The notes under the pieces: generated by a model
What the model saw: only the letters and a program-made list of their open reading frames with translations
The model's database searches: none
What the model was told of the DNA's origin: nothing
Shown here: in pieces, positions 14,602 through 60,831 of the stretch
Position numbering within the stretch: the stretch's first letter is position 1
How the letters are laid out: each line of letters begins with the position of its first letter
Program-made: the position numbers and the translations under genes
Virus record (IMG/VR): IMGVR_UViG_3300032307_000691
Length of the DNA: 64,000 nt
Origin: a virus
Lineage: Duplodnaviria; Heunggongvirae; Uroviricota; Caudoviricetes
Strand: one strand, 5' to 3'

Positions 14602-14602
14602 A

Positions 14603-16818: not shown

Positions 16819-16888
16819 TTCTTATTGGATAGTTTTTTGTTAATCGATAATAGAACGATTAAGATAACGACAAGTAGTAATCCAATCA

Positions 16889-17062: not shown

Positions 17063-17078
17063 TTTGTTTAATCTTTTT

Positions 17079-17816: not shown

Positions 17817-17827
17817 TATAATATCAA

Positions 17828-18316: not shown

Positions 18317-18352
18317 ATCTAAAAGATAATAAATAAAATTTGAAAAACCAAA

Positions 18353-38130: not shown

Positions 38131-38153
38131 AAAAAACCCCTTTTCAGGGGTTT
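38131..38153 (-). terminator. rho-independent terminator
   Basis: AACCCCTGAAAAGGGGTT followed by a U-run on the minus strand; overlaps the stop of 38144..38719. Confidence 0.55.
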
Positions 38154-38719: not shown

Positions 38720-38721
38720 AA

Positions 38722-41914: not shown

Positions 41915-41940
41915 TATTTTTTAGAATATCTTAAATAAAA
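41915..41940 (-). promoter_or_regulatory. GAATATTC-type promoter-like box (AGATATTCTAAAAAA)
   Basis: Overlaps the stop of 41931..43319; upstream of a small unlisted ORF (~41683..41838). Confidence 0.35.
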
Positions 41941-43319
41941 TCGAATTTTTCTTTCTTTATTTCTAAATTCGAGAAGTTTTCCATCCTTTTGTTTAAGATT
42001 TCTATGGATTTGCTAAACAATTTATCTACCGGAGTATTAGCTTTACCATATGATTGTGATAGCTTACCCTTACGATATTGTAAGTTTATCGTCTTTTTAT
42101 TATGTGTCATTGAGAGATAAACATATGAGAGTGCCGTAACAAATTGTTTACCCATACAATTTTTCATATTATATCCTTCAGTTATGAAATCATCTTCAGT
42201 TTTTAAAACTCTAATCTCAAATTTTTCATCATCAATTATGATTGGTATTTCAATCTGATTAACGAAATCACCTGAGTGACTCACCCTAACTCTATAACCT
42301 TTTTTAAAGTGGTTTTTTAAACTCTCCCATTTTTTAAACATTAATTCAAAACTGTCATCATCTTTAGCAATGAATTTAACTTCCATATTTTTATTTGAAA
42401 GGAATTCTCTAATGGTGAGAACTTCATTTAATGAGTGTACCAATGAACTGGTTTGTAATCCTGACTTCTCCCAATTATTAAACAACTGCACTAAGTATTT
42501 TTTCTCGGATTCGTTTTTTAATGTGTGGTAACGGTTGTTCGCAACATTAATTCCACAACTATGTTCCATCCAATTAATTTGTTTTATATAATCAATATAA
42601 TTCTCACCAAACAATCTACAGATGTAACTCAATGTTCTAATGTTCACATCTCTTTCTTGTGCTTTGTTTATTTCACCAATTAGATATTTGTTTTTGATTC
42701 CATACGAATCAAGAACTGACGGTATGAATTTATATTCATTCTCCTTTAACCATTTTGATTTGGGGTAGTCATGTAGAAGGGAGTAGTAAACACCATCATG
42801 GCCTTTTATTTTCTTCCTATCCAAATGAAAGTCAACAATCAAATCATAGAAACTATTGAGGTTTGTTTTGTTAACGTAATCTTTATCCTTGAGGTGTTCA
42901 CTCTCAATTAATGGGGTTAATCTTGACACGAGATATCTAACAACATCATCACATGCTCGTTTATATTTTACTCCCCAATAATTGGTTCTCTTCTCACCTT
43001 TCAAACAACCATTTTCAGTTAGGTCCAATAGATAATCAAATCTATTATCGCCTCTCTTACTTTTATTCTTTATCATTTCTTCACCCAAACTTTCATTTAC
43101 CAATTGATAGTAAACGTTGAAGTTCCCACTCTTTAATTTCAAACTAAATCCATGGGAGATTAAAATCTTTTTGAGCTTGCCGAATCTTTTATAATCAAAT
43201 GAGAACTCGGAATAGAAATGTATATCTTCTGAGGTTTCATATAACCTCATCTCACAAACATATTCGAGATTTGTTTTGCGTTCTTTTTTAACTTGTCGGT
43301 GATTAACCAATAAATCCAT
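41931..43319 (-). CDS. large conserved phage protein, paralog of 43365..45245 (family B)
   Basis: Shared blocks IPSVLDSYGIKNKY / LLSVLDSYGIKSKF and EGYNMKNCMGKQF / EGSFMHHCVASYANK. Confidence 0.55.
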   Translation of the reverse strand: MDLLVNHRQVKKERKTNLEYVCEMRLYETSEDIHFYSEFSFDYKRFGKLKKILISHGFSLKLKSGNFNVYYQLVNESLGEEMIKNKSKRGDNRFDYLLDLTENGCLKGEKRTNYWGVKYKRACDDVVRYLVSRLTPLIESEHLKDKDYVNKTNLNSFYDLIVDFHLDRKKIKGHDGVYYSLLHDYPKSKWLKENEYKFIPSVLDSYGIKNKYLIGEINKAQERDVNIRTLSYICRLFGENYIDYIKQINWMEHSCGINVANNRYHTLKNESEKKYLVQLFNNWEKSGLQTSSLVHSLNEVLTIREFLSNKNMEVKFIAKDDDSFELMFKKWESLKNHFKKGYRVRVSHSGDFVNQIEIPIIIDDEKFEIRVLKTEDDFITEGYNMKNCMGKQFVTALSYVYLSMTHNKKTINLQYRKGKLSQSYGKANTPVDKLFSKSIEILNKRMENFSNLEIKKEKFDFI

Positions 43320-43364
43320 ATATAAAATATATATGGACTCACGGTCATTATGTAGTGTTAATTT

Positions 43365-45245
43365 CTAAAAACCAAATGGGTCGTGTTCTAAAAACCCGGC
43401 ACCTCCACCCGCTTGTGGGATTGGTACTTCTTTACCGTTAATTTTAACCCTAACTTTTTTAACATCAATGTGGTCGAGTAATCTCGAATACCTCAATGAT
43501 TTGATTCTATCTGACACAACACTAAGTGCTTTATTGAAATGTTCAGGTGGTATACGATTACAGAAATGACGTTCTTGTACAACGTGACCTGTTTTCTTAT
43601 CGTACTCACAGGTTACCCTATCCATTCCATTATTTAAACGAATAGATACTATCATTGACGTTTCTTTATTTGCATATGATGCAACGCAGTGATGCATAAA
43701 TGAACCTTCCTCAGCGTACTCCTCCTCCCTCTTTAATATCGTGGGATGAAATTCATAGATTTCATCATTGAATTCATAGATGATAGGGGTTTCAATCTTC
43801 CTTACCGTTCTGTTATCGTAAACATATTCTTTGGACCAACCTTTACGAATAGTTGATATTAGTTTGGTTAGCTCCAAGTGTTCAGTGTGAAACTCATCGT
43901 AGGTTGTTGACCTCAATTTATATGAAGGGTCGTACTCCTTTAATTTTTTAATCATATCAACGTGGTCCCTAAACAAACTGTATAATCCACTGACCGCTCT
44001 TAGTGGTGATTCGTTACCCGCTTTGACAAGTGAGTTGATGATTTTAATTATGTTCTCCTTTTCTGATTGTTCCAAATCATGTTGTTCAGTCAACCTTCGA
44101 GCATTAATTGGTACTGGTGACTGGTAAACATTCTTTTCTTTTTTATCAAAAAACTTTAAAACCTTTTCATCCAAATTACCCATGTACTTACTGTACTCAC
44201 TACCAAAGAAACTTGCGAAATTTCTTATCTCAAAGATGTCCATGTTGGTATTGGTATGGAATAACTTGTTTGTGAATTTTGATTTGATTCCATAACTATC
44301 CAACACCGATAATAAAAGTTTATTATCATTCCGTTTTAGGTATTTCTGACCCGGATAGTGGAATCGAATTAAGGACATGTAATCATTTGGTACCTTAATC
44401 TTCTTTGTTTTAACGAAGAAATCGATAAACCTTTTTAATAGGTCATTCCTACCCTCGTTCTCCCTGATGTTAGGTAACCACGAATTTAATTGACCCATCT
44501 CCTCCAAGATTGCTTGTATGAATTCGGTATCGTTGATTGTTTTACAAAACTCAGGATAGATTTTATGATTCCCATTTACTACACTAATGAAATTAAAGAA
44601 ACCATTTGATGTGATGAGACGCTCAACAAATGCAAAGGAGTTTTTTCTAAAACGTGTACTCCTACTATTACCAATAACATTTGTTTCACCTATTGTGAAG
44701 TTACCGGTTGATAGGTCGAATGTTAAACTCTCGGAATGAAATTTCCTTTTAAAGTATATTCTATTTACTCCTCTGTATTTTGTAAATTTCTTTGCCTTAA
44801 TAACAAGTTTTCCTTCATCGATAACAATTGTTCTTTCTATTGTTACTATAATAATAGATGATGAGGGTCTACCGTAATGTCTTTTGATGTGTTTGTCTTC
44901 GGTGGTGTAGAAATTCTCCCCACCATCAGTACCATAAAAGCTTATGAATGGAACTTTACTATGTTCCTTTGGTTCATCATTATCTAAATGATAATGATTG
45001 GTTTTCCTATTATTCTTTTTTTTGAAGAAGGTGATATCGGTAACAACTTTCCTAAATGGAGTTGGGCGTTTTTTAAGCTCATCAATTAAACGAACTGTGT
45101 TCTCACCAAATATGTCATCGAAATCGTAATTCTTGGTCTCATGTTTATTCATTCGTTTTAACATGATACCCCTATCCTGAATGTTACAATAATCCTTACA
45201 GACCTTGATTATCGCGTATTGGAATCTCTGATTTAATATTTCCAT
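43365..45245 (-). CDS. large conserved phage protein (626 aa, family B)
   Basis: Tandem paralog; HHCVASY Cys motif. Confidence 0.55.
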   Translation of the reverse strand: MEILNQRFQYAIIKVCKDYCNIQDRGIMLKRMNKHETKNYDFDDIFGENTVRLIDELKKRPTPFRKVVTDITFFKKKNNRKTNHYHLDNDEPKEHSKVPFISFYGTDGGENFYTTEDKHIKRHYGRPSSSIIIVTIERTIVIDEGKLVIKAKKFTKYRGVNRIYFKRKFHSESLTFDLSTGNFTIGETNVIGNSRSTRFRKNSFAFVERLITSNGFFNFISVVNGNHKIYPEFCKTINDTEFIQAILEEMGQLNSWLPNIRENEGRNDLLKRFIDFFVKTKKIKVPNDYMSLIRFHYPGQKYLKRNDNKLLLSVLDSYGIKSKFTNKLFHTNTNMDIFEIRNFASFFGSEYSKYMGNLDEKVLKFFDKKEKNVYQSPVPINARRLTEQHDLEQSEKENIIKIINSLVKAGNESPLRAVSGLYSLFRDHVDMIKKLKEYDPSYKLRSTTYDEFHTEHLELTKLISTIRKGWSKEYVYDNRTVRKIETPIIYEFNDEIYEFHPTILKREEEYAEEGSFMHHCVASYANKETSMIVSIRLNNGMDRVTCEYDKKTGHVVQERHFCNRIPPEHFNKALSVVSDRIKSLRYSRLLDHIDVKKVRVKINGKEVPIPQAGGGAGFLEHDPFGF

Positions 45246-46046: not shown

Positions 46047-46309
46047 TCGTCAATATTGAAATCATCATTCAAGTACTCTTGGTACTTTACTTGAATCATG
46101 TGTGTGTAATGTTGTTCTCTTGTGTGTCTTTGGATAGTTTCAACAACCGCATCCGCGTGTCCCTGTCCAAACTTTTCTACCATCTCGGTATACTCATCAG
46201 TATTTTCGAAGTCCAATAAATGGTCAACCACCTCATATACTTTAGTGGATGCTAATGGTTCGAAATCATCAAAGGTTAGTTTTAAATTTTCCATAACAAT
46301 AAATATCAA
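46043..46309 (-). CDS. hypothetical protein (88 aa)
   Basis: ORF track. Confidence 0.45.
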   Translation of the reverse strand: MIFIVMENLKLTFDDFEPLASTKVYEVVDHLLDFENTDEYTEMVEKFGQGHADAVVETIQRHTREQHYTHMIQVKYQEYLNDDFNIDE

Positions 46310-47508
46310 TTACTTAAAGGTGCCTTAATTGATGGGTGAGATTGGTAATTCAACAATTCAAAATTATGAATACTGTAATAATCCAAATCTAACTTATTTG
46401 GGTCCGGTTTCCCAAATTCAAATAAGGTAGGACTTATTTTTAATATGGGTAACTTAAATGGTTCTCTAGTATGTCTTGGTATTTCATATTCATCGTATGC
46501 CCAACTTAAACCTCCACCAAATGGTACCAAATCTTTTACCGCGGAATTATAATTCTTCTCACCCATTGCATTTTTTAATAACGTAATTCTCTCTTCATGA
46601 GAATACTTTCTACCAATTTGTTCTTTAGCTTGTTCAATATGATTTAGATATAAGTGTGTGTCACCCAAGTTTCCAATCAATTCATCTGGAATCATATTTA
46701 CTTCTTTTGCGATAATTTCGAGTAACAAAGCATAACTCGCTATATTGAATGGTAATCCTAAAAAAGTATCAACTGAACGTTGATTCCACATTAATGAGAT
46801 TGCTCGTTTTGGAACTCTCAAACTATCCATATGGACGTGATGATAATCCGAACTTCTACCCAACGGGTCTTTTGTTTTGTTGTAATAATCGATTCGTTCA
46901 TCCAAGTTCAACTCTCTTGTATAAACTTGAAACCCATAATGACAAGGTGGAAGTACCATTCGGTTTAATTCACCTACATTCCAAGCATTAACCATTAATC
47001 GTCTTGAGTCAGGATTTGTTTTAAGGTCGTTGATTAGGTTTACGATTTGGTCTGTGTTAGAATTTAATCCTTCCCAACTTCTCCATTGTTCACCATAGAT
47101 TGGACCTAATTCACCCCACTTTTTAGCAAACTCATCATCGGTTTTGATTTTGTTGATGAAGTCTTCTTTAGAAATTAAAATTCGAGTTTCGTGAAAATCT
47201 TTATCATTCTCATTAGGTCGACTATTGTTTAAATAATTCATATACGCATCACCATCCCAAATATGACAACCATTATCAACAAGGAACTTGATATTTGTAT
47301 CACCACGAAGGAACCATAATAACTCGGTCACCATAGTTTTCCAAGCCATCTTCTTAGTAGTTAGAAGAGGAAACCCTTCACTCATCTTATGACGGATTTG
47401 TCTACCGAATACTGAAATAGTGCCGGTACCTGTTCTGTCTTTCTTCTCCACACCATTATCTATGATGTCCTGAAGAAGTTTCTGATATTGCTTATCAATG
47501 TTATTCAT
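46306..47508 (-). CDS. thyA: thymidylate synthase family protein with large insertions (ThyA; a dNMP hydroxymethylase cannot be excluded)
   Basis: GFPLLTTKK...LLWFLRGDTN, GPIYGEQWRSW, LPPCHYGFQVYT, DTFLGLPFNIASYALLLEIIA...GDTHLY; about 400 aa versus roughly 264-316 typical. Confidence 0.75.
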   Translation of the reverse strand: MNNIDKQYQKLLQDIIDNGVEKKDRTGTGTISVFGRQIRHKMSEGFPLLTTKKMAWKTMVTELLWFLRGDTNIKFLVDNGCHIWDGDAYMNYLNNSRPNENDKDFHETRILISKEDFINKIKTDDEFAKKWGELGPIYGEQWRSWEGLNSNTDQIVNLINDLKTNPDSRRLMVNAWNVGELNRMVLPPCHYGFQVYTRELNLDERIDYYNKTKDPLGRSSDYHHVHMDSLRVPKRAISLMWNQRSVDTFLGLPFNIASYALLLEIIAKEVNMIPDELIGNLGDTHLYLNHIEQAKEQIGRKYSHEERITLLKNAMGEKNYNSAVKDLVPFGGGLSWAYDEYEIPRHTREPFKLPILKISPTLFEFGKPDPNKLDLDYYSIHNFELLNYQSHPSIKAPLSN

Positions 47509-48646: not shown

Positions 48647-49012
48647 ATGTTAGCAATAGTAAACGGAAAACAATTCCAAGGAGAATACCTAACCCAACCC
48701 CATGAGATTCAAAAAGGAATGATGGGTAGAGATTCTCTTGATGGTTGTATGGTTTTTAAAATGGGAATGGGGCATCACACGTTTTGGATGAAAAACTGTG
48801 TTATCCCATTAGATATTGTATTTGTAAACAAGAATAGAATTTCCCATATACATCAGAATTGTCCTCCCGCAGATTCACACGATATGAATCCACCGAGGTA
48901 TACTGGTATCGGTGACCACGTAATAGAATTCCCTGCAGGTACCTGTCAAGGTTGGAAGGTTGGGGATAAGGTTAACCTCTATCTTGGTACTCCACAGAAC
49001 CCTGTGGGATAA
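48647..49012 (+). CDS. DUF192-family protein
   Basis: HTFWMKNCVIPLDIVFVNKNRI matches the DUF192/COG1430 core. Confidence 0.5.
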   Translation: MLAIVNGKQFQGEYLTQPHEIQKGMMGRDSLDGCMVFKMGMGHHTFWMKNCVIPLDIVFVNKNRISHIHQNCPPADSHDMNPPRYTGIGDHVIEFPAGTCQGWKVGDKVNLYLGTPQNPVG

Positions 49013-49805: not shown

Positions 49806-49982
49806 ATGGGATGTGGATGTAAAAAAAGAAACCAAACTCCGGTTCAACCTTCGAACACGGTAGTGATGACTGAAGGTCAATCAACGACTCAAGAAATCAA
49901 TCTTGTTGACCAACAACAAGTGGAATTATTGGTGAAGAAAATCGAAGAAATTAACGATTCCTTAGAAGAATCTGAACAATAA
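49806..49982 (+). CDS. small protein (58 aa) with MGCGCKK N-terminus, not in ORF track
   Basis: ATG at 49806-49808, TAA at 49980-49982; followed by a terminator. Confidence 0.35.
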   Translation: MGCGCKKRNQTPVQPSNTVVMTEGQSTTQEINLVDQQQVELLVKKIEEINDSLEESEQ

Positions 49983-49992: not shown

Positions 49993-50020
49993 AATCGCGA
50001 CATCATGTCGTGATTTTTTT
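49993..50020 (+). terminator. rho-independent terminator
   Basis: aatcgcgacatcatgtcgtgatt hairpin followed by TTTTTTT. Confidence 0.55.
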
Positions 50021-50078
50021 ATCTAACCTATATATATTTATTATATACAGATATAATTTTTATATAAAATATTAAACA

Positions 50079-50282
50079 ATGAGTAAAGAATCTAACACTA
50101 AGCTAACTAGCGTAAAAATCATCGACAAGAACTACTACGAATTCAAAAGAGTTACTCTCGGTTCCGATTTGACATTACAAAAATTTGTCAATAGAGCAAT
50201 TGATTTATACCTGAGAGAACACGACTTTAAGAATAAGATTGATATCCACGAAACAGGTGGAGTTAAAAATTCCAAGTACTAA
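50079..50282 (+). CDS. small putative DNA-binding regulator (ribbon-helix-helix-like)
   Basis: 67 aa; first gene of the plus-strand glycosyltransferase island; the RHH assignment is tentative. Confidence 0.35.
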   Translation: MSKESNTKLTSVKIIDKNYYEFKRVTLGSDLTLQKFVNRAIDLYLREHDFKNKIDIHETGGVKNSKY

Positions 50283-50285
50283 TTC

Positions 50286-51644
50286 ATGAAGAAAAAGATT
50301 TTATTATTATCCGATGATTTGAGAATGACATCGGGAGTCGCAACCATGTCCAAAGAAATTGTACTTGGGACCATACACAAATATGATTGGGTACAATTGG
50401 GCGGTGCATTAAACCATCCTGAAGCCGGTAAGATTGTCGACATTAATGAAGATGTGAGAAAAAGAACAGGTGTTAAGGATGCCAATTTAAAAGTGATTCC
50501 AAACAATGGTTATGGAAATATTTTCACTTTAAGAATGTTAATGGAGGTTGAGAAACCTGATGCCATTTTACATTTCACCGACCCACATTATTGGCAATGG
50601 TTGTACGATGCGGAACATGAGATAAGACAACAAATTCCTATTCTATATTATCATGTTTGGGATAACCTACCCGACCCAACCTATAACAGAAACATCTATG
50701 AGAGTTGTGATTGGATTGGTTGTATCTCTAAACAAACATATGGTTTAGTTAAACGAGTTAGTTCAATTGATACTGAGGAAACATTCCAACCATTAAAGGA
50801 TTGGCAAGTTAGTTACGTTCCTCACGGTATTAATCCTGATGTGTTTAAACCGGTGGATACGTTGTCAGATGATTTACGTAAACATATCTTCGGTGAGAAA
50901 GATTACGAATTCATTTTATTCTTCAATAACAGAAACATTAAAAGGAAACAACCAGCTGATGTGATTCTATCATATAAACTATTCTGCGATTCTTTAACGA
51001 AAGAACAATCAGAGAAATGTTTATTGTTGATGCACACAACACCAATTGATGAGAACGGGACCGACTTAACTGTCGTATCTAAATCATTGTGTCCCGATTA
51101 TGATATTAAGTTTATTGATTTAAAATTAGAACAAGATAAATTAAATGAACTTTATAATATTGTTGATTGCACCATTAACATTTCAAACAATGAAGGTTTT
51201 GGTTTAGGTACCGCAGAGAGTATCATGGCGGGAACTCCAATCATTGTAAATGTTACCGGTGGATTACAAGACCAATGTGGTTTTAATTATACCGCGGAGA
51301 ACTATGTAACATTTGGTTCATTACACAATAAGAAGGTACATGGGTCAACAAAACACGGCGAGTGGGTTGTTCCGGTATGGTCGGATGTGAACAACCTAAA
51401 TGGTTCTATCCCCACACCATTCATTTATGAAGACCGAGTTAACAATAATATTGTTGCAGGTGCAATTGGTGAAGTATATGGTTGGGGTAGAGAAGAAAGA
51501 AAACGTAGAGGTTTAGTTGGTAGGGAATGGGCAATCGAAAACCTATCAAGTAAAGTAATGTGTGATGGAATTATAGATGGAATTGAAACCACTTTAAAAA
51601 AATATAAACCCCGTAAACGATTTGATTTATATAAGATAGTATGA
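50286..51644 (+). CDS. glycosyltransferase (GT4/GT1-like)
   Basis: C-terminal EGFGLGTAESIMAGTPII matches the GT4 E(G)FG...G.P(I/V)I signature. Confidence 0.65.
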   Translation: MKKKILLLSDDLRMTSGVATMSKEIVLGTIHKYDWVQLGGALNHPEAGKIVDINEDVRKRTGVKDANLKVIPNNGYGNIFTLRMLMEVEKPDAILHFTDPHYWQWLYDAEHEIRQQIPILYYHVWDNLPDPTYNRNIYESCDWIGCISKQTYGLVKRVSSIDTEETFQPLKDWQVSYVPHGINPDVFKPVDTLSDDLRKHIFGEKDYEFILFFNNRNIKRKQPADVILSYKLFCDSLTKEQSEKCLLLMHTTPIDENGTDLTVVSKSLCPDYDIKFIDLKLEQDKLNELYNIVDCTINISNNEGFGLGTAESIMAGTPIIVNVTGGLQDQCGFNYTAENYVTFGSLHNKKVHGSTKHGEWVVPVWSDVNNLNGSIPTPFIYEDRVNNNIVAGAIGEVYGWGREERKRRGLVGREWAIENLSSKVMCDGIIDGIETTLKKYKPRKRFDLYKIV

Positions 51645-52888
51645 GTAAACCATTTTTACTTTTTAGAGGACCAGTAGAAACCGTTAGTGGTTATGGTGCA
51701 CATTCGAGAGATTTATTAAGAGCACTACGTGATATGGATTTATTTGATATTCGTATTGATTCTTGTCATTGGGGTGCAACACCAAGAACCGCGTTAAATA
51801 AGAATGATGAATTCAGTAAATGGATTTATGCAAACAAAATAACAACCTTATCTGCCACACCTGACATCTATGTTCAAGTGACGGTACCGAATGAGTTTCA
51901 AAGAGTTGGTAAGTTTAATATAGGAATCACAGCAGGTATTGAAACTACCGCAGCACCAAAGGAATGGGTTGATGGGTGTAATAGAATGGATTTGATTATA
52001 ACAACTTCTAATTTTAGTAGGGATGTTCTTCTTCAAACCGTCTTCAATGAAACCGATAAGTTAACAGGCAAACTTGTTAAACAATATAAAATCGAAAGAC
52101 CGATTGAGGTTCTCTTCGAGGGTGTCGATACCGACGTGTACAATAATAAATTCACAAGTCTCGATGTTGATATTAAGGAAGATTTTTGTTATCTTTTTGT
52201 TGGTCACTGGTTGAAAGGTGACATTGGTCAGGATAGAAAGGATGTTGGTATGTTAATTAAATCATTTGTTGAGTCGTTCAAGGATACTGAGGACCAACCA
52301 GCATTAGTTTTAAAAACATCATCAGCAGGATTTTCTGTGAAGGAAAGAGAAACCTTCAAAAAGAAAATTAAAGACTTGGTGAAGGGTATTGAGAATCCTC
52401 CATCGATTTACCTTCTGTTCGGACAACTAACCGATAACGAAATGAACGAATTATATAATCACCCAAGAATTAAAAGCATGATTACTCTTACTAAGGGTGA
52501 AGGATTCGGTCGACCACTACTTGAATTTTCAATGACAGGTAAACCAATCATCGCATCCAATTGGTCAGGACATAGAGATTTCTTACCTATGGATAAAGCA
52601 ATTATGATTGGTGGAGCATTAACAGATGTTCATTCAAGTGCGGTTGACAATTTCATTGTTAAGGATTCTAAATGGTTCACTGCAAATTATTCGGAAGCAA
52701 TAGAAGTAATGAAGATTGTAAAGAGAGATTATGATGAGTTCTATGAGAAATCTCAAATTTTGATGGAAGAAAATAAAGAGAAGTTCTCAATGGAAAGAAT
52801 GAAAGAAGTGTTTCAATCAATCATCACACCGTATGTTGTTAAACCAAAAGAAGTTAAAATAAATTTACCTCAATTAACTAAATTATAA
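51641..52888 (+). CDS. glycosyltransferase (GT4/GT1-like)
   Basis: GEGFGRPLLEFSMTGKPIIASNWSGH. Confidence 0.6.
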   Translation: MSKPFLLFRGPVETVSGYGAHSRDLLRALRDMDLFDIRIDSCHWGATPRTALNKNDEFSKWIYANKITTLSATPDIYVQVTVPNEFQRVGKFNIGITAGIETTAAPKEWVDGCNRMDLIITTSNFSRDVLLQTVFNETDKLTGKLVKQYKIERPIEVLFEGVDTDVYNNKFTSLDVDIKEDFCYLFVGHWLKGDIGQDRKDVGMLIKSFVESFKDTEDQPALVLKTSSAGFSVKERETFKKKIKDLVKGIENPPSIYLLFGQLTDNEMNELYNHPRIKSMITLTKGEGFGRPLLEFSMTGKPIIASNWSGHRDFLPMDKAIMIGGALTDVHSSAVDNFIVKDSKWFTANYSEAIEVMKIVKRDYDEFYEKSQILMEENKEKFSMERMKEVFQSIITPYVVKPKEVKINLPQLTKL

Positions 52889-53163
52889 TGGGATTAAGTA
52901 GTTTTAAATTTGGTAGAGATAACTATACAAAGGAATTTACACTAACCAATGATTATCTACCTTTATTAAGAATTGCTCCGGCAATAACATTTCAACAAAC
53001 AGAGTGGGTGTTTCAGTTTGATGATGAACAGCCGGTGGTATTTGCTTCACAACAAGAAGAACCCAACCTAACCATCACACTCAACAACACAAATCACGCA
53101 TCAATAGAATTCACAGACAATAACAGAAGATTTAAAATATTCGCAAGGGAGAGACAACAATGA
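52888..53163 (+). CDS. hypothetical protein (91 aa)
   Basis: ORF track; translationally coupled. Confidence 0.45.
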   Translation: MGLSSFKFGRDNYTKEFTLTNDYLPLLRIAPAITFQQTEWVFQFDDEQPVVFASQQEEPNLTITLNNTNHASIEFTDNNRRFKIFARERQQ

Positions 53164-53786
53164 AAATCAGCTATGGAATCACGGTATGTAATGAGTTAGA
53201 GGAAATCAAACGATTGGTACCTCTATTAATTGAGAACAAAAGAATTGAGGATGAAATCATAATTCTTTTTGATGACAAAAATGGAAGTCAAGAAGTTTTA
53301 GATTTCTTATTACCATTTAATAAATTACCAAATGTTCAAACGTGGAGAGGTTTGGTATTTGTAAATGATTTTGCGATATGGAAAAATAAACTGAATGGTT
53401 ATTGTTCAGGAGATTATATTTTCCAACTTGATGCAGATGAATTAATTACAAAAGAACTAATATTGAATTTACCGGAAGTAATCGAATCTAATCCTGAGGT
53501 GGACTTGTTTGTATTCCCACGAATTAATACCGTGAAAGGAATCACAGACGAACACATTAAAATGTGGGGATGGAGAATGGACGATAAAGGTAGAATCAAT
53601 TTCCCCGATTGGCAAGGAAGATTATATAAGAAGGGTTTAAATTGGCACGGAAAGGTTCATGAAAAGATTGTGGGTGCTAAAACCTATTCTCTCATGCCCG
53701 AAGATGAGGGGTACTGTCTTATCCACGAGAAAACAATTGAAAGACAAGAAAGACAAAATAATTTTTATTCTAAAATAACTAAGTAA
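53160..53786 (+). CDS. glycosyltransferase family 2
   Basis: YGITVCNELEEIKRL...FDDKNG...QLDADE (DxD). Confidence 0.6.
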   Translation: MKISYGITVCNELEEIKRLVPLLIENKRIEDEIIILFDDKNGSQEVLDFLLPFNKLPNVQTWRGLVFVNDFAIWKNKLNGYCSGDYIFQLDADELITKELILNLPEVIESNPEVDLFVFPRINTVKGITDEHIKMWGWRMDDKGRINFPDWQGRLYKKGLNWHGKVHEKIVGAKTYSLMPEDEGYCLIHEKTIERQERQNNFYSKITK

Positions 53787-54580
53787 TGGTTAAAATCATA
53801 TCCAATTATTCTGGTTTAGGTGGGTCCACCATAATCTTAATTAACTTAACAAATCTATTCAACAGTAAAGGTATCAAAACAACATTCTATGGTCCACACG
53901 ATTACCACATGGATAAGTGTGACGGTAAAAAACTAACAGATTTAAAATTAGATAAAGATGATATCTTACTGACCCATTTTTTTAAATTTGATAAGAGACC
54001 GAATGTGAAACGTGTGGTATTGGCATCACATGAAAAATGGTGGTTTGAGATTGCAGATTGTCCGAGATATTTTGATACAGTTGTTTTCAATCATGAGGAA
54101 CAACGAAACTATCATAGTAGATATGACGGACCATATGTTCTAATACCCAATCCAAAAGATGTTACATCACCACTTTACGCAATTGACAAACCTGAAAAGG
54201 AAATGATTGCTGGTGTTATTGGTAGTATTGAGACAAGGAAACAAACTCACCTATCAATAGAAAGAGCTCTTGAGGATGGGTGTGAGAAAGTATTGGTGTA
54301 CGGTAAGATAATGGATGATGCATATTTTAAAAAATATTGTAGAAAATATGAATACCATCCAAACGTAAAATTCATGTGGCAAACTGACAATAAACAAGAA
54401 ATGTATAATAGTATTGGTCGAGTTTATCACATGTCAAAGGGTGAAGTTTCATGTTTAGTAAAAGATGAATGTCATTACACAAATACCAAATTCTTTGGTA
54501 ATGAACAAACTGAACACGTGGTATCAGATTTAACCAATGATGATATTTTCTTATTGTGGAAAGATGTTTTAAAATTTTAA
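53786..54580 (+). CDS. hypothetical protein, possible glycosyltransferase accessory (264 aa)
   Basis: ORF track; in-operon position. Confidence 0.45.
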   Translation: MVKIISNYSGLGGSTIILINLTNLFNSKGIKTTFYGPHDYHMDKCDGKKLTDLKLDKDDILLTHFFKFDKRPNVKRVVLASHEKWWFEIADCPRYFDTVVFNHEEQRNYHSRYDGPYVLIPNPKDVTSPLYAIDKPEKEMIAGVIGSIETRKQTHLSIERALEDGCEKVLVYGKIMDDAYFKKYCRKYEYHPNVKFMWQTDNKQEMYNSIGRVYHMSKGEVSCLVKDECHYTNTKFFGNEQTEHVVSDLTNDDIFLLWKDVLKF

Positions 54581-54583
54581 TGG

Positions 54584-55687
54584 ATGGACATTAGTTTAGT
54601 ACTTGCAGTATTCAATAAATTAGATTTAACTAAGGATTGTTATAAAAGAATCCGTGAAATTTATCCCGACGCACCACTTGTTATCAGTAGTGGTGGTTCT
54701 ACAGATGGAACTAAGGAATGGTTAGAGTCACTAGCCGATGATAACCTATCTTACATTCATGACGATGATAAGTTAGTTTTTTCAGAGAACTACAATGCTG
54801 CAATCAAGTTAGTGGATACTGAAAAGTTAGTGTTGATTCACAACGATATGGTCATTGGGAGACACTTTCTTGAGAATTTGGATAGATTACTCACGCCAGA
54901 CACTTTGTTGTCTTATACGACCTTAGAACCACCGATTTTTAAGGGACATAACAGACCCGGTAAGGTAATTGTAGATATGGGTTATGGTTTCCACGATTTC
55001 AAATGGTTAGAGTTTGACAAATATGTTGAAGAGAATAAATCAGATTGTAGAATATACGATGGTGCAGTATTCTTCATGAGTGGATACAAGAAGATGTTTG
55101 AGGATGTTGGGTTCTTTGATGGGTTTAGTTTCGTACCGGCATTTGCTGAGGACGATGATTTCTTAATCAGGGCCAAACTCAAAGGTTACAAATTAAAAAC
55201 AACCACTTGTGCAATCACCTATCACTTTGTTTCTCAAACATCAAGGTTTAGTGATGACTTTAAGAATGATAGAATGAAGTATGAGATTAACTCAAATAGA
55301 AACTTTGTTCGTAAGTGGGGCATACCCATCCCCGCATTTAATGAATTGAGGTATTGGGAGGATTCTTTGTTTACTTATAAAACATTTACCATGGGCTTAA
55401 CTACCCGAAATCGTTCAAGGTTATATGAGATTGAACCATTCTTCGATAAGATTGATTTAGGGATAATTCCTGAGGATTATTTGGAGAATGAACAGAAGAA
55501 CACCCGTTATGATTTAAGGTCAAAATTTGTCCTTACTGACGTTGTGGATGTAATGGTATATGAACTAAGTCCTTTGACCGATGAGGACATTTACACCCTA
55601 CAAAAATTGCGTTTATCGATACCACATTACCCCATTGGGGAATACAAGATTGGTTCGATGAAAATAGAAATAAAAAAGGGGGTATAA
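54584..55687 (+). CDS. glycosyltransferase family 2
   Basis: ISLVLAVFNKLDLTKDCYKRI...SSGGSTDGT...IHNDMVI. Confidence 0.6.
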   Translation: MDISLVLAVFNKLDLTKDCYKRIREIYPDAPLVISSGGSTDGTKEWLESLADDNLSYIHDDDKLVFSENYNAAIKLVDTEKLVLIHNDMVIGRHFLENLDRLLTPDTLLSYTTLEPPIFKGHNRPGKVIVDMGYGFHDFKWLEFDKYVEENKSDCRIYDGAVFFMSGYKKMFEDVGFFDGFSFVPAFAEDDDFLIRAKLKGYKLKTTTCAITYHFVSQTSRFSDDFKNDRMKYEINSNRNFVRKWGIPIPAFNELRYWEDSLFTYKTFTMGLTTRNRSRLYEIEPFFDKIDLGIIPEDYLENEQKNTRYDLRSKFVLTDVVDVMVYELSPLTDEDIYTLQKLRLSIPHYPIGEYKIGSMKIEIKKGV

Positions 55688-55698
55688 ACCCCCTTTAA
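55673..55698. terminator. bidirectional rho-independent terminator
   Basis: AAAAAGGGGGTATAAACCCCCTTTAA between convergent genes. Confidence 0.65.
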
Positions 55699-55717: not shown

Positions 55718-56182
55718 TTATTCATTTGGTTTTTGTACCAACATGAACAATAAGTTATAATCGTCCGTTGTTTCTCCGACCTTTTCCAAATCTTCCATTG
55801 TTAGTGGCGTGTATTCAATCTCCTTGTCTTCGCCTAACAAAGCATTGAATTCGTTTTGGAATTCCACATATTGTGGGTTGAGTTCTCGTGAGATGACTTT
55901 ATCGTTTTCATCTTTTTGCTCGATGAATACGCCAATTTGAATTCCACCTTTACCATCATCCTCACCATGTTTTTGAATGATTTCATCACGAAGTGTTTCG
56001 ATTGCTTTGCGTTCAGCGGCCAATCTATCACCCAACTCGCTCAACCAATATTTTGTCTTTAGAGGTAGTTTATGTTTTCTAAAACCCACGAACACTTCTT
56101 TTCCGTTCTGTGGATTTACAAACCCATTAATCTCACTTTCTAATTGTAGGACCTGTCCTAATTTTAATGTTAGTTTTGCCAT
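55718..56182 (-). CDS. hypothetical protein (154 aa)
   Basis: ORF track. Confidence 0.5.
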   Translation of the reverse strand: MAKLTLKLGQVLQLESEINGFVNPQNGKEVFVGFRKHKLPLKTKYWLSELGDRLAAERKAIETLRDEIIQKHGEDDGKGGIQIGVFIEQKDENDKVISRELNPQYVEFQNEFNALLGEDKEIEYTPLTMEDLEKVGETTDDYNLLFMLVQKPNE

Positions 56183-56234: not shown

Positions 56235-56795
56235 TCAATACCACCAACCTTTACCACTAAATTCGGCGAAATCAAATAATAAATTGATTCTATCGATTGA
56301 ACCTCGATTGTTGACCTCATGTTGACGCATGTTATTCAATTCAAACATTTGTCCAATCTCAAAGAATTTACTCTCTTCTTCAACAACATATTCTACTTTA
56401 TCCCATTCACAAATTAATGGTACGTGAATACGGTGTGATAGATTGTAAGAACCCCCAACATCTTTATGAGATTTAATACTTTGTCCTGCCGGTAATCTTA
56501 CCAGAACCGCCCGAACAACATAACCCCAATTATACTCTTGTTCAAGTTTCTTTAATAATGGGTCAATTAGTTTATCAAAATCTAATCTATGGTACAACTC
56601 ATGTTTGGTTCCGTTGAAATGTCGGAAATCGTTGTCATAGATTATTGCTAAGGTCTTCGATGCTCCGTGCATTGGATTAGCATCTTGTCTCCATGTATAT
56701 CTATCCCACTCTTCGGTTGGGATTTGAGATACCTTATCCAACCATGGTTGAATATCCACCTTACCGTAATCTTTGAAGTTTTCTTTTATATTCAT
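56235..56795 (-). CDS. aspartyl/asparaginyl beta-hydroxylase-family 2OG oxygenase
   Basis: SHKDVGGSYNLSHRIHVPL...NNMRQHEVNNRGSIDR resembles the AspH H...H(L/V)GL...fDDsfeHev.N...R pattern; start trimmed to MNIKENF (ATGA overlap). Confidence 0.5.
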   Translation of the reverse strand: MNIKENFKDYGKVDIQPWLDKVSQIPTEEWDRYTWRQDANPMHGASKTLAIIYDNDFRHFNGTKHELYHRLDFDKLIDPLLKKLEQEYNWGYVVRAVLVRLPAGQSIKSHKDVGGSYNLSHRIHVPLICEWDKVEYVVEEESKFFEIGQMFELNNMRQHEVNNRGSIDRINLLFDFAEFSGKGWWY

Positions 56796-57796
56796 AAAAT
56801 TGTAAACAGTGCGTAGGTTAACATTATTGAAATCCAAATGATAAGTGCCTTTAAATAAACCATAAATCCTGTGTGGAAATATTTCTGACCTATTGGTAAA
56901 CACTTATGTGTTGGTGATATTAAATATGCGGAGTATTCCAATGTGAAGAACAATACAAAGTATTCCATGCCAAATGCCGCTGTTAATAAACTAACGATAC
57001 CAGCATACTTTGCGGATGAACCGAGTAAGAAAGATGCAAGGAAACCAAAAATAGAAACCAAAACAATATTCTTACTCAAAGCAAATTGTTTGATGAATGC
57101 TTCGATGTATGTGTAATAAGAATTAATTAAGTTTCCGAGGACAATTACAATGGCAACAATCACAACTAACTCCCAATTAATATAATCCAATAGTTTGAAC
57201 CATGACTTGGAATAACTAACCAAGTAGTATGTGAATACAATGAAAGCTAAAAAGTAATAATCAGTTACACAACTAATTAAAATGGTGGTGAGGAATGGAA
57301 CCACAACCAACCACATGTTCTTCCAATTAATTGGTTCATCATGTACCTCTATGTCAATCTCATCATCGTTTAGTGACATGATGTAAAATGAAATGTATAC
57401 CCCTGTTATCAATAACAATGGCCATATATAAGACATAAAAGTCATATATGATAAACCAAGTACCGCCATCGGAATGATAACAGTTTTCTCGAGAGGTGAC
57501 CATAGATAATAATGGTGAGTTGCCAAGTAATCAATGATACCGAACTTCTTTCTTTTCTTATTATCCACAGGCGCAATACTATTCAACATACTAGCTGATA
57601 AAGCAACTCTACCGGGTATTGGAAGTACTCCACCAAACAATGAAACAAGAAAGACGACTGCTTTCTTTGATTTGATTTTCTGTGTTAGTAATCGAAATAA
57701 GTCCGTAAGGTATCCTCTTTCTTTGAGGATACCCGTTACGAACATTATTGAAATTAAATAGATTAGGAACTCTTGTCCCTTAATTAAAATCTCCAT
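56792..57796 (-). CDS. polytopic membrane protein (about 9-10 TM), putative transporter
   Basis: 334 aa, very hydrophobic. Confidence 0.5.
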   Translation of the reverse strand: MEILIKGQEFLIYLISIMFVTGILKERGYLTDLFRLLTQKIKSKKAVVFLVSLFGGVLPIPGRVALSASMLNSIAPVDNKKRKKFGIIDYLATHHYYLWSPLEKTVIIPMAVLGLSYMTFMSYIWPLLLITGVYISFYIMSLNDDEIDIEVHDEPINWKNMWLVVVPFLTTILISCVTDYYFLAFIVFTYYLVSYSKSWFKLLDYINWELVVIVAIVIVLGNLINSYYTYIEAFIKQFALSKNIVLVSIFGFLASFLLGSSAKYAGIVSLLTAAFGMEYFVLFFTLEYSAYLISPTHKCLPIGQKYFHTGFMVYLKALIIWISIMLTYALFTIL

Positions 57797-58746
57797 GCGA
57801 ATATGATTGTGCTTCGTGATGCTTTAGAATCTTGAGTTAACCCCGGCATCACTTCCACGGTTAAATAAGCATGACCATTAAATCGATATTGAAGAAGTGG
57901 TCCGAGATAATACTCATTACTACCACCACTATAATCATTGTGACGATACATACCACTAACACCTAAAGTTAAATCGTTGTTGACGATGTGACCATACGAT
58001 GCTGTTGATGCATACTCAGGTTCTCTTTCCTCTTTAGTATTGGCTAAATTACCTTCATAGATAAGGTTCAAACCCCAAATACCATTGTTACCGATTCTAT
58101 CACCAAGTAATAGTTTTGGTTCAATACCCCAATACCCATCTAACATTTTCATTTCATAATAGATGGTTGGGTTACCCCAAATCTTACCCCAATCGGCAAG
58201 TGCATACCTTAATTCCCATGAGAAGCCCCTCCAACTGAAGGTCTTGTTGCCATTTTCACCATCATAAACGGTATGAGAGTACAGGTCTAATTGTAATCTC
58301 TTTCCTAAACCGAAGGTGAATTCATCCCTCATTCTAATTTGGGCCGGACCGTCCCTGCGGTCACGAATGTCAAACCATTTCTCATACATGACTGAACCTG
58401 GTGGGTTCATCACGTAGACCCTAGTTGAAGGGAACATCCTCATTGTACTCCACAAGGGTTGGTTGTATGGACCTACCTTTGTTTGGAGGGGATATTTCTT
58501 TGCGGTTACAATAACAGCTTCCATTTCCATCGGACCCATAATGGTATCTTTTACCTTAGTTGAATCCTTGGTTCTTGCCTGTTCTGAACCTCTACTTATA
58601 GCAGAATTGCTGTATTGTGCATTTACAGATGTTGCACCCATCAAAAGAAGGAGAAATGTCAACTTCCCCGTTTTGTTTCCCACAAACCCAATGATTGTTG
58701 AAACGACATTGACCAACCAAAATGATGGTCTTTTTTTTACATTCAT
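57784..58746 (-). CDS. outer-membrane beta-barrel-like protein
   Basis: Signal peptide ending VNAQ; Y/W/G-rich; C-terminal ...IIFAWRF aromatic terminus typical of OMPs. Confidence 0.5.
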   Translation of the reverse strand: MNVKKRPSFWLVNVVSTIIGFVGNKTGKLTFLLLLMGATSVNAQYSNSAISRGSEQARTKDSTKVKDTIMGPMEMEAVIVTAKKYPLQTKVGPYNQPLWSTMRMFPSTRVYVMNPPGSVMYEKWFDIRDRRDGPAQIRMRDEFTFGLGKRLQLDLYSHTVYDGENGNKTFSWRGFSWELRYALADWGKIWGNPTIYYEMKMLDGYWGIEPKLLLGDRIGNNGIWGLNLIYEGNLANTKEEREPEYASTASYGHIVNNDLTLGVSGMYRHNDYSGGSNEYYLGPLLQYRFNGHAYLTVEVMPGLTQDSKASRSTIIFAWRF

Positions 58747-59143: not shown

Positions 59144-59309
59144 TGATTCGGTTTAAAAGGTTTTCTTTAATCTCATTCTCATCTTTGAATAAATGAAAAT
59201 GAACGGGTTTATTACACATACAAGTGAAGTCCATATATTCGTTCACTAGTTCTTTATACTTCGTTTCTAAAAATTCAATTCGTTCTTTTAATTCTTTAAT
59301 CTCGTCCAT
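59137..59309 (-). CDS. possible small coiled-coil protein (about 57 aa) bridging the halogenase and membrane genes; coordinates approximate
   Basis: MDEIKELKERIEFLETKYKELVNEYMDFTCMCNKPVHFHLF...; overlaps the halogenase 3' end in another frame. Confidence 0.2.
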
Positions 59310-60831
59310 ATTTCTCCCTTAATTGTTCATAAAGGTTTGGTAATAACTCAGTCAAGAGTTTTGTTTCATATTTAATTAAATCTATTTTCTTTTCCATGTA
59401 AGGAAGATACTTTTCTTTGATTTCAATCCTTGGTCTTCTTCCAAATGGATTGTTGTAAAAGAATCCCGTGCCCCATAACCATTGGAACCAGTTTACTGAA
59501 CCGAAGATTCTACCTCTGAATAATTCCTCAGCAGGTCTCACGGCCATAATCTGTAACTTCTGCATCAATGTGTCAGGAATAAATGATTTGGTTTTACAAT
59601 CTCTCCAAAAAGGAGTATCGTTTCTTTGACAAGTCAGGTAGTGTGCGTGAATGAAATCACGAATATCAATCATCATATCAATATTATCCTTGTTGATAAT
59701 ATCAATTGTTTGTGAAGTGTAGTTCAAATCGTTTCTTTCAAGTTCAGTTGCCAATGTTGACATAATTCCTTGGAAGGTAGAAATGCCGGTTGATTCCATT
59801 GGTTCGGCAAATCCTCCTGCCAATCCACAAGCAACAACATTTTTAACCGCAACTCTTTCACGAGTACCAACTCTCATGTTGATTTTTAAAACATCACCTT
59901 CATAACCACCATGGAATTCTCTAAACTCCTTCTCAGCTTCTTCATCAGTAATATACTTTGATGAGTAAACATAACCGGAACCGATTCTATCATAAATTGG
60001 TGTTTTCCATAACCAACCACTATTCATCGTATACAATCTACTGTAAGGTTCCATTTCTGTTGACTTATCCTTGTATTGAATAGGTGCAGCAATCGCCTTA
60101 TCACAGAATAATGAATCTTCAAATGAGATGAATGGTTCACCCATTACCGATTCAATCAACGCACCTTTGAAACCTGAACAATCTATATAAAGGTCCGCTT
60201 TGAACTTTTGTTGGTCCCATAATTTAATATCTTGGATGAATCCAAAATCATCAAGTTTAACTTGTTTAAGGTCACCCTCAACAAACTTTACTCCATTAGG
60301 GATACAAACTTTATTTTTGATTACCTCTGCGAATTTGATTGCATCGAAATTGTAACTATAAACACTTTCAATATCGTTAAACGTTGGGATGTAACTTAAT
60401 TCATCATCAACAGTTGGTGATAGGTTTTGAAGTGCTAAGGTTGGTGAGAGAAATAACTCATTTATTTTGTGTGGGTCATTCTCATGATATTTTAAAAGAT
60501 ATTGTAAGAGATTTGTTTTTTGATTGATGTACAATGTTTGTTCGTTCTCCACCAAAACAAAATGGTCGCCCTTTTCTGACCAATTCATAAATCTCCCACC
60601 GTATTTGTAAACTGCTGAAGATTCTTCCATCCAATCTTTTTCTTCCAATCCAATGAACTTCATAAAGGAATGAAGACTTGCGGTGGAGCTTTCACCCACA
60701 CCAATTGTTCCAATTTTTTTGGAATGAATTAATGTAATATCAAGTTTATCTTTAAAAACTTTTGATAATAATGCCGCGGTCATGATACCTGCGGTACCGC
60801 CACCGACGATTAATATTTTTTTTACTTCCAT
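59296..60831 (-). CDS. flavin-dependent halogenase (tryptophan-halogenase family)
   Basis: N-terminal ILIVGGGTAG FAD fold; GWLWKTPIYDRIG matches the halogenase WxWxIP motif. Confidence 0.7.
   Translation of the reverse strand: MEVKKILIVGGGTAGIMTAALLSKVFKDKLDITLIHSKKIGTIGVGESSTASLHSFMKFIGLEEKDWMEESSAVYKYGGRFMNWSEKGDHFVLVENEQTLYINQKTNLLQYLLKYHENDPHKINELFLSPTLALQNLSPTVDDELSYIPTFNDIESVYSYNFDAIKFAEVIKNKVCIPNGVKFVEGDLKQVKLDDFGFIQDIKLWDQQKFKADLYIDCSGFKGALIESVMGEPFISFEDSLFCDKAIAAPIQYKDKSTEMEPYSRLYTMNSGWLWKTPIYDRIGSGYVYSSKYITDEEAEKEFREFHGGYEGDVLKINMRVGTRERVAVKNVVACGLAGGFAEPMESTGISTFQGIMSTLATELERNDLNYTSQTIDIINKDNIDMMIDIRDFIHAHYLTCQRNDTPFWRDCKTKSFIPDTLMQKLQIMAVRPAEELFRGRIFGSVNWFQWLWGTGFFYNNPFGRRPRIEIKEKYLPYMEKKIDLIKYETKLLTELLPNLYEQLREKYGRD

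Follow-up and report, generated by a model that had tools for sequence, protein, structure and literature searches.

Seven plus-strand genes at positions 50079-55687 of the IMG/VR virus record IMGVR_UViG_3300032307_000691, here named A to G, form a core module that is syntenic and vertically conserved in a large clade of uncultured large and jumbo phages from aquatic habitats. The stretch of DNA analysed is 64 kb long and is referred to below as the window. That A to G constitute one operon, with an upstream terminator and head element of its own, can be stated with high confidence. Its self-contained character as a unit for glycan synthesis, first proposed in a preliminary description of the sequence, is supported by the operon's own upstream terminator and promoter region together with four glycosyltransferases (GTs) that keep their catalytic motifs. 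The operon is of an ordinary kind, the phage GT cluster, in an unusually well-defined form, in which a conserved core operon is combined with a hypervariable cassette. Taken as a whole, the observations are best explained by a glycan that would be built in the cytoplasm on a phage-encoded acceptor, probably a virion protein. This explanation is held tentatively, at a little short of an even chance.

Four of the gene products are recognisable GTs. B (50286-51644; 452 aa) and C (51641-52888; 415 aa) are GT4-like enzymes, predicted to be of the retaining GT-B type. E (53160-53786; 208 aa) is a GT2 enzyme of the inverting GT-A type, and G (54584-55687; 367 aa), also a GT2 enzyme, is the operon's conserved last gene. 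This division into two GT4-like and two GT2-like enzymes had been suggested earlier, and it holds up against the Pfam gathering cut-offs of 26.4 bits for Glycos_transf_1 and 23.3 bits for Glycos_transf_2. The margin is narrow for B (28.8 bits, 1e-6) and C (26.8 bits, 4.2e-6), while E (35.7 bits, 1e-8) and G (41.3 bits, 2e-10) lie well above the cut-off. B also matches the Pfam GT4-conflict model at 7e-6, slightly under its cut-off, and PHROGs agrees with the Pfam assignments. B and C are alike only around the donor-binding motif, and C is not a close paralogue of B.

The catalytic motifs are retained in all four enzymes. The EX7E motif is present in B (E303/E311) and C (E287/E295), and both pairs are invariant over about 20 divergent relatives. 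In E, the DAD at residues 91-93 (D91-A-D93) is invariant. G has a variant form, with an invariant HND at residues 86-88, the DxD position, and EDDD at 189-192; its C-terminal region of ~130 aa is uncharacterised. A DxD motif is present in E and plausible in G. The preliminary description had named loss of the DxD motif or the catalytic base as the sign of inactive enzymes; the motifs found in B, C, E and G instead support the prediction that all four are catalytically intact.

Searches against solved structures place these enzymes only broadly. The best PDB profile match of B is the chlorovirus NY-2A protein B736L (3oy2, 9.4e-10), followed by TreT and BshA, and C matches the mannosyltransferase WbaZ-1 (9.5e-5) and B736L (1e-3). 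The GT-B structures matched by B and C are 3oy2, 2x6q, 5d00 and 2f9f. Profile matches of E are to chondroitin synthase (5e-7), GmaR (8e-7) and SunS (5e-6), and further to two unnamed glycosyltransferase entries (5tze and 6h1j) and GalT1. GmaR is a flagellin O-GlcNAc transferase and SunS is a peptide S-glycosyltransferase. The same PDB profile search gave no match for G. None of the A to G proteins reaches an NCBIfam equivalog cut-off, as BshA, MshA, SunS, PgaC and WcaE are matched at 16-30 bits against cut-offs of 180-460. Within these scores, B has weak similarity to BshA and MshA, and the nearest model to E is SunS, far under its cut-off.

The open reading frame (ORF) listing agrees exactly with the coordinates first given for the seven genes. 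A (50079-50282; 67 aa) is the operon's first gene, D (52888-53163) encodes a small protein of 91 aa that is predicted to be all-beta, and F (53786-54580; 264 aa) is cargo of the variable cassette and a possible fifth GT. Gaps of 3 nt separate A from B and F from G, while the remaining junctions overlap by 1 or 4 nt (TAATG, ATGA). This geometry is compatible with the translational coupling that the preliminary description had asserted. None of A to G has a hydrophobic segment: the maximum 19-residue Kyte-Doolittle hydropathy is 1.22, and no stretch exceeds 1.6. The operon likewise encodes no flippase, polymerase or polyprenyl-phosphate transferase.

The block was first described as an island, a label that its features do not bear out. 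Its GC content of 0.346 matches that of the window (0.354), and its gene order is shared by the 80 related loci examined. On composition and synteny, the idea of an acquired island or moron was rejected. GC skew reverses sign across 50079-55687, which is expected from the orientation of the block. The opposite strand to both flanks, also claimed at first, is borne out in part, but the upstream flank is not wholly opposite, as it carries two plus-strand ORFs, a DUF192 gene (48647-49012) and an ORF of 58 aa (49806-49982). The latter, with the N-terminus MGCGCKK, lies just 5' of the upstream terminator and is present in 12 related loci. Downstream, a minus-strand gene (55718-56182) converges on the 3' end of the operon.

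Conservation of the module was assessed in related loci. A scan of IMG/VR with B matched 153 relatives, 80 of which, on contigs of up to 316 kb, were kept for locus comparison, with the window proteins compared by tblastn. B is 66-87% identical across these 80 loci. The recurring order is a DUF192 gene (plus), an N6/N4 DNA methylase (minus), in some loci the 58-aa ORF, then A, B, C, usually D, E, a variable interval, G, and a gene of 154 aa (minus). The strand flip of the module is the same in the related loci. Median identities are 69% for B, 71% for C, 63% for E and 71% for G, which is present in 62 of 82 loci; among neighbouring genes they are 71% for the methylase, 72% for DUF192 and 54% for ThyA. 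The genes of the module are therefore as conserved as neighbouring core genes and more so than ThyA, which marks a stable core module. The preliminary description had considered that the block might be a universal core module of a known phage family with a defined non-glycan role; a conserved core module is what is found, and no non-glycan role is known.

Homologous blocks were also looked for among isolated phages, as first suggested, and are present in Flavobacterium phage immuto and Microcystis phage Mel-JY01. Neither is a close nucleotide match to the window; no isolated phage is, and these two are its weak matches. Both have a GT-GT-small ORF-GT2 arrangement followed by further sugar genes, and a looser A-B-C-x-E core recurs in immuto, Mel-JY01 and contigs of marine metagenome-assembled genomes (MAGs). 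The homologues of B in cultured phages are 49% identical in Mel-JY01, 46.5% in immuto (immuto26A_90) and 28% in Rhodothermus phage RM378, with 27% over half the protein in Synechococcus phage S-CBS4. A further homologue (36%) occurs in a 484-kb uncultured phage. A literature search found no paper on Mel-JY01 or on the GT cluster of the immuto genome.

The distribution of the module appears to be restricted to phage-like contigs. In a GTDB scan of one genome per species, relatives of B were found on 12 MAG contigs, including a 248-kb 'Flavobacteriaceae' contig and marine TMED bins, and in no isolate bacterial genome. Wherever the length of these MAG contigs permits a judgement, B, C and E follow one another in the same order, in most cases together with A. 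A HMMER scan of 1.84 billion cluster representatives yielded 277 relatives of B at E<=1e-30. Proteins identical to those of the window, including D, are encoded on a 318,562-bp contig, and an identical D also occurs in several metagenomes.

Between E and G, conservation gives way to a hypervariable sugar-tailoring cassette, in which F stands alone in the window. E and G are both present in 56 loci, where they are separated by anything from 9 to 5525 bp (median 2121 bp). The cargo includes an NAD-dependent epimerase/dehydratase in 45 of the 56 loci (not in the window) and UDP-galactopyranose mutase in 9 loci. Other cargo genes encode GT2 enzymes, Methyltransf_24/RMNT_CmcI-like and other S-adenosylmethionine methyltransferases, and DUF3431 proteins; a DegT-type aminotransferase was noted by sequence inspection only. 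The largest cassette (L038, ~13800-19000) carries, by inspection, an acetyltransferase, an acyl carrier protein, an AMP-dependent ligase, a short-chain dehydrogenase and a methyltransferase-GT2 fusion, a content that suggests an acylated amino sugar. No sugar-nucleotide enzyme is encoded in the window's operon, and the phage therefore presumably uses host donors.

F itself occurs in only 3 of the 80 IMG/VR loci, and 297 clusters of homologues are found in metagenomes, several of which are named 'glycosyltransferase involved in cell wall biosynthesis' by the Joint Genome Institute (JGI). Its Pfam Glycos_transf_1 match is weak (0.0045), and 2 of 29 family members match. Members share a conserved N-terminal GGS loop and an E220-x7-E228 motif. 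Neither the single sequence nor a 29-member profile found a match in the PDB, and comparison with the B family by hhalign found nothing. F is thus a possible fifth glycosyltransferase of compact GT-B-like form. Of the two proteins first described as accessory, F may therefore belong with the enzymes, while D stays a small conserved protein.

In the mechanism favoured here, B, C, E and G would act in turn in the cytoplasm of the infected cell, and nucleotide sugars would, in the window's phage, be taken from the host. The resulting oligosaccharide would have a constant inner part, made by these four enzymes, and an outer decoration that differs between phages. Its acceptor would be a conserved product of the phage itself, with a virion protein, for example the gp23-like major capsid protein, as the likeliest candidate; the particle would thereby gain a glycan coat. 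A regulatory role for protein A, exerted on the operon by way of a TATATA element upstream of A, is possible. In GT-B enzymes, the N-terminal half forms the acceptor side. In B this half contains long, near-invariant runs such as DAILHFTDPHYWQWLY, and all of C is highly conserved too. The near-invariance of the N-terminal half of B suggests a conserved, phage-encoded acceptor. The nearest solved relatives are a chlorovirus GT (B736L) for B and the protein or peptide GTs GmaR, SunS and GalT1 for E. That the acceptor is a virion protein is a tentative proposal, somewhat more apt to be wrong than right. Virion-protein glycosylation is the best remaining of three candidate roles first put forward, the others being DNA glycosylation and seroconversion of the host surface.

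Small proteins encoded within the module in relatives bear on the possible target. In 49 of 82 related loci, a mini-gene of 70-90 aa, named D2, lies between D and E, often with an 8-nt overlap with D (for example, L018 12837-13055, L008 12831-13049 and L079 10999-11238). D2 matches Pfam Gp23 at 1.8e-5 and, by hmmsearch, roughly 80 fetched gp23-like capsid proteins at E ~1e-15. Aligned with gp23-like capsid proteins by hhalign (98.9% probability, E 3e-17), it corresponds to capsid residues ~295-390, and it matches the capsid genes of immuto and Mel-JY01 by tblastn. The capsid region concerned presumably comprises a strand and the spine helix, as read from the T4 gp23/gp24 structures. From these alignments, D2 is interpreted as a fragment-like paralogue of the gp23-type major capsid protein, and its presence in most related loci points weakly to the capsid as the target.

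The D family, found in about 60 of 82 loci, has no Pfam, PHROG or NCBIfam match. An AlphaFold 2 (AF2) model of D (pLDDT 64) is all-beta with seven strands, for which Foldseek gave only non-significant Ig-like matches. D and D2 share an N-terminal M-x-FKFF-x-G motif, which is found in most relatives of D and is degenerate (SFKFG) in the window. Across the loci the FKFF motif occurs in 88 ORFs, all within the module: 45 are D, 42 are D2, and one is a small ORF of 60 aa between C and D (L051 6175-6357), the rest of which resembles, by eye, a tail-fibre-type 'GFVGIGT..P...LD' sequence. The idea that D is a detached capsid insertion domain was rejected, as hhalign comparisons with the full capsid alignment and with its ~207-310 segment gave probabilities of 0.06-0.15%. 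Likewise, the similarity of the FKFF N-terminus of D to the capsid motif 'GVRAFRFLSG' (0.1-0.7 bits) is not significant alone.

A broader proposal can be built on these observations, namely that large and jumbo phages of aquatic Bacteroidota and cyanobacteria commonly possess a system dedicated to glycosylating the capsid or virion. In such a system, B, C, E and G would make a conserved core glycan on the gp23-like capsid protein or some other virion protein, the E-G cassette would diversify the exposed sugars from one phage lineage to another, and the FKFF mini-proteins D and D2 would link the enzymes to capsids under assembly, as adaptors or decoys. In this full form the proposal is doubtful, although a real possibility.

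Several observations weigh against a glycan on virion proteins. No acceptor has been identified, the window contains no virion protein, and the D2 capsid-fragment gene is absent from it. In the window, as in immuto and Mel-JY01, the operon lies among nucleotide-metabolism and auxiliary genes, not structural genes. The immuto capsid protein is without an obvious Ser/Thr-rich acceptor tail. Protein A is a possible small DNA-binding regulator, and neither sequence nor structure supports that role. GT2 and GT4 similarities at E ~1e-5 to 1e-9 say little about the type of acceptor. Lastly, GT4 and GT2 enzymes that are soluble can also work on lipid-linked intermediates, at the inner face of the membrane, and the lack of membrane segments is therefore compatible with a target in the host envelope.

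Two further observations concern the capsid region. An IMG/VR scan with the immuto capsid protein, made for the capsid gene of the window's phage, gave only immuto-like contigs, none of which corresponded to a GT-bearing contig. Two genes downstream of the capsid gene of immuto (L083 4112-5752) lies a gene for a Thr/Ser-rich repeat protein of 547 aa, 'TPTGLPTGVTASW..ITISGTPT..GTFNYSIPLTGG'. It may be a surface or decoration protein, and O-glycosylation of it is conceivable.

Remodelling of the host envelope would employ the same enzymes differently. The soluble GTs would act at the cytoplasmic face on host lipid-linked intermediates, such as those of the lipopolysaccharide (LPS) core, O-antigen, capsule or a Bacteroidota O-glycan. 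The surface of the infected cell would be altered, for example to exclude superinfection or to keep progeny from adsorbing to debris. The GT4 and GT2 enzymes of LPS and capsular polysaccharide pathways are typically peripheral and have no membrane segments, and the NCBIfam and PDB neighbours of the window's GTs include WbaZ-1, WcaE, PgaC and VpsD-type enzymes, all at weak scores. However, neither the operon nor the cassettes of relatives contain an initiating phosphoglycosyltransferase, flippase, polymerase or ligase. The variable cassette resembles the diversity of O-antigen loci, and papers on cyanophage GT clusters commonly propose modification of the host surface (PMC12801897). Yet strong conservation of the acceptor-side half of B and of the whole of C extends over freshwater and marine relatives and those with cyanobacterial hosts, among which the host glycans should not be alike. 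The absence of the B lineage from isolate bacterial genomes and the capsid-derived mini-genes inside the operon in relatives also argue against this explanation, which is considered unlikely.

A particular form of envelope modification is seroconversion. Known seroconversion cassettes comprise an integral-membrane GtrA flippase, a GtrB bactoprenol GT and GtrC, and are morons of temperate phages. The window's operon resembles gtrABC and other O-antigen modification systems of Shigella and Salmonella phages in that phage-encoded GTs would alter a glycan. In contrast to those cassettes, all seven window proteins are predicted to be soluble, and the operon is a conserved core of large, apparently lytic phages. 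Seroconversion of the gtr type, one of the roles first suggested, is thus disfavoured by the lack of membrane proteins among A to G and by an acceptor-side domain that is conserved across phages of presumably different hosts.

The genomic surroundings raise a different alternative, in which the GTs would put mono- to oligosaccharides on a modified DNA base for protection from restriction. A thymidylate-synthase-family gene (46306-47508) lies 2.6 kb upstream of the operon, and in 65 of 82 loci the 10 kb of sequence fetched on the upstream side of the module includes a homologue. The region is one of nucleotide metabolism, with a DNA methylase directly upstream. Such a setting recalls DNA-sugar clusters (T4 alpha/beta-GT; MT-5mYOX-GT, ThyS-GT), which also combine GT-A and GT-B enzymes, and to which the extra sugar-modifying enzymes of relatives form another likeness. 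In the work of Pyle et al., proximity of a GT to ThyS marks a candidate DNA sugar pathway of the pre-replicative type, and sugar chains as long as trisaccharides are reported on 5-hydroxymethylcytosine (bioRxiv 10.1101/2023.12.21.572611).

The details of the window nevertheless differ from such clusters. No hydroxymethylpyrimidine-forming enzyme was found, and among about 50 window proteins scanned (small ORFs being outside the scan) there is no match to TET/JBP, a C5 methylase, a hydroxymethylase-associated kinase or Que/DpdA. The neighbouring methylase is of the N6/N4 and not the C5 type. ThyA, for its part, has the look of a genuine thymidylate synthase. Aligned over its whole length, it shares 59% identity with the immuto enzyme; authentic thymidylate synthases head its PDB matches (3e-71); and both the Asn that specifies dUMP (PFNIASY) and the C-terminal HPSIKAPL tail are retained. 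The four to five GTs, together with the methyltransferases, mutases and acyl-carrier modules of relatives, exceed any known DNA glycan. Cui et al. analysed the DNA of immuto, which has the homologous A-B-C-E core, by liquid chromatography with ultraviolet and mass spectrometric detection; they found dA, dC and dT, with dG fully replaced by fdPreQ1, and reported no sugar-bearing nucleoside (PMC10516641). DNA glycosylation, another of the roles first listed, is therefore disfavoured and is regarded as very improbable.

The window's ThyA, on the minus strand, is 400 aa long and has two insertions and a C-terminal extension; the immuto enzyme has the same insertions. A stretch of ~150-250 bp of thyA is ~90% identical in nucleotide sequence to immuto, while the genomes are otherwise diverged.

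Other cytoplasmic acceptors can also be envisaged. The small proteins D and D2 could themselves be glycosylated, to be secreted or to serve as decoys; a host protein modified during takeover, a small molecule and a free glycan are further candidates. D and D2 are encoded in the operon and share a motif seen in no ORF outside the module. However, both are missing from immuto, Mel-JY01 and marine relatives that keep A-B-C-E, and therefore neither is a universal acceptor. A peptide target is suggested by the place of SunS among the nearest named relatives of E, although no genes for glycocin-type export or maturation are present. The weak matches of B to BshA and MshA, which are small-molecule GTs, could point to a small-molecule acceptor, but all these similarities are far under the family cut-offs. 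An acceptor of this group is distinctly unlikely.

Attachment of a glycan to the virion has precedents in two unrelated groups of viruses. In mycobacteriophages, GT genes lie outside the structural module, as they do here. Glycans are reported on mycobacteriophage capsid and tail-tube subunits (Freeman et al. 2023, as summarised in PMC12619734), and, according to that summary, several soluble GTs are encoded in a lytic phage genome, as in the window. Descriptions of the mycobacteriophage system include no conserved seven-gene architecture, hypervariable cassette or embedded small proteins. The two systems differ in host phylum, with no sequence relationship shown, and a glycan in the window's phage is a prediction from its genes.

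The second precedent is that of the chloroviruses, whose own cytoplasmic GTs assemble the capsid glycans: the core of these is conserved, while the decorations, in part O-methylated, vary with the strain. B736L (PDB 3oy2) is the best solved-structure relative of B and also matches C, and the combination of constant genes with a variable cassette containing RMNT_CmcI-like methyltransferases matches the core and decoration pattern. Unlike the phage module, the chlorovirus system is that of a eukaryotic virus; there is no shared synteny, and similarity is limited to the GT4 donor-binding half. To our knowledge, the function of B736L itself has not been established.

The moraphages offer an ecological comparison. 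Here as there, the setting is one of freshwater jumbo phages with predicted Bacteroidota hosts, and in the moraphages four GT orthogroups are notable in the core, with no function assigned (Perez-Hernandez et al. 2025, PMC12619734). They are reported to be distinct from T4-like groups, whereas the window's module co-occurs with gp23-like capsid homology in relatives.

Glycosylation by virus-encoded enzymes is well known from giant eukaryotic viruses and from a few mycobacteriophages. The GT clusters of large lake and ocean phages are usually annotated and then read as DNA protection or modification of host LPS. If virion proteins are the acceptors, the module would represent the first virion-glycan system of a general kind to be described in tailed phages from the environment. 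A lineage-specific coat of this sort could influence adsorption, grazing and aggregation, as well as how host defences recognise the particle. The DNA chemistry of immuto speaks against a DNA target, and immuto is therefore a directly testable system for self-made particle glycans.

The boundaries of the operon are marked by two hairpins. Upstream, where a terminator had been proposed at 49993-50020, an intrinsic terminator occupies 49993-50015 on the plus strand, with a 10-bp stem and a U-run (dG -11.5 kcal/mol, z -6.05). Related loci have a hairpin and T-run at the matching position, with differing stem sequences. This terminator is predicted to insulate the operon from upstream plus-strand transcription. 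At the convergent junction downstream, a G+C hairpin at 55675-55696 (dG -14.7 on the plus strand and -16.2 on the minus strand) has a stem that overlaps the stop codon of G, and is followed by 6 U on the minus strand and 3 U on the plus strand. The hairpin claimed at 55673-55698 is thus present, but the terminator scan calls only the minus strand, and the bidirectional label does not hold. It is probably a good terminator mainly for the minus-strand gene at 55718-56182, and a weak one for the plus strand.

Between the upstream terminator and A lies an AT-rich promoter or operator spacer (50021-50078, plus strand), which has 10% GC, in agreement with the promoter region first proposed there. 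It contains a TATATA-N3-9-TATATA element (50029-50047), a candidate promoter core or operator for A. In the window, the pattern has 5 matches at 4 sites against 0.10 expected. A TATATA-rich element is conserved upstream of A in relatives: it lies within 90 nt upstream of A in 46 of 57 distinct related loci, and of the sites within 10 kb on either side in these 57 loci, 49 of 54 fall in the 500 nt upstream of A. The element therefore appears to be specific to the GT operon and a few other genome sites (2111, 3327 and 43319), as a rare class of promoter or possibly an operator for A. A role as a general promoter was rejected: the window has only four sites, which adjoin a small DNA-binding-like ORF, a PcfJ-like gene and an operon end. 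No clearly shared promoter motif was seen at the structural genes of immuto. The other copies in the window are at 2111-2126, 3327-3342 and 43319-43333. One stands 4 nt before the ATG at 2131 of a small ORF resembling, by eye, an AP2/integrase-type DNA-binding protein, another abuts the start of a PcfJ-like gene, and a third lies between a stop codon and a terminator.

Protein A is the first gene of the module in 81 of 82 loci, at a median identity of 42%, and is also found in immuto and marine contigs. Its invariant residues include K8, L9, T10, V12, F22, Q34, K35, V37, R39 and F50. The label of a ribbon-helix-helix (RHH)-like protein, given to it at first, finds no support: neither Pfam, applied to 19 family members, nor a PDB profile search (E<=10) returned an RHH match. 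An AF2 model of the monomer (pLDDT 65) has helices at 8-26, 31-46 and 48-59 and no Foldseek match; RHH strands form only in dimers. A likeness by eye to the CopG strand-helix-GxS/T-helix pattern is a lead only.

Other genes of the window provide context for the phage that carries the operon. Downstream, at 56235-58746 and 59296-60831 (both minus), lie genes for an Asp/Arg beta-hydroxylase-like protein, a multi-pass DUF401 membrane protein, a protein of 320 aa and a tryptophan-halogenase-like flavoenzyme. The 320-aa protein matches no family and is hydrophobic around residue 18; its gene recurs downstream of G in 17 related loci, and the DUF401 gene in 23. Two large PcfJ-like proteins of 462 and 626 aa are encoded by adjoining genes at 41931-43319 and 43365-45245 (minus).

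Several further genes relate to nucleotide and RNA metabolism. A short protein of the adenylosuccinate synthetase family (335 aa; 15811-16818, minus) is labelled PurZ-like by PHROGs; it scores 275 bits against the NCBIfam PurA cut-off of 402 and 128 bits against the PurZ cut-off of 300. A link to 2-aminoadenine DNA or to ordinary purine salvage is conceivable. A phosphoribosyl pyrophosphate (PRPP) synthetase (18353-19324) and a nicotinamide phosphoribosyltransferase (20130-21650), on the minus strand and one gene apart, have PHROG E-values of 9e-54 and 9e-156 and look like a phage NAD+ salvage pair. Lastly, tandem HAD_SAK_2 ('Swiss Army Knife RNA repair') domain proteins (38144-39294), a protein with a poly(A)-polymerase/CCA-adding head domain (22815-23546) and an RNase T-like exonuclease (28879-29544), all on the minus strand, suggest a toolkit for RNA or tRNA repair.

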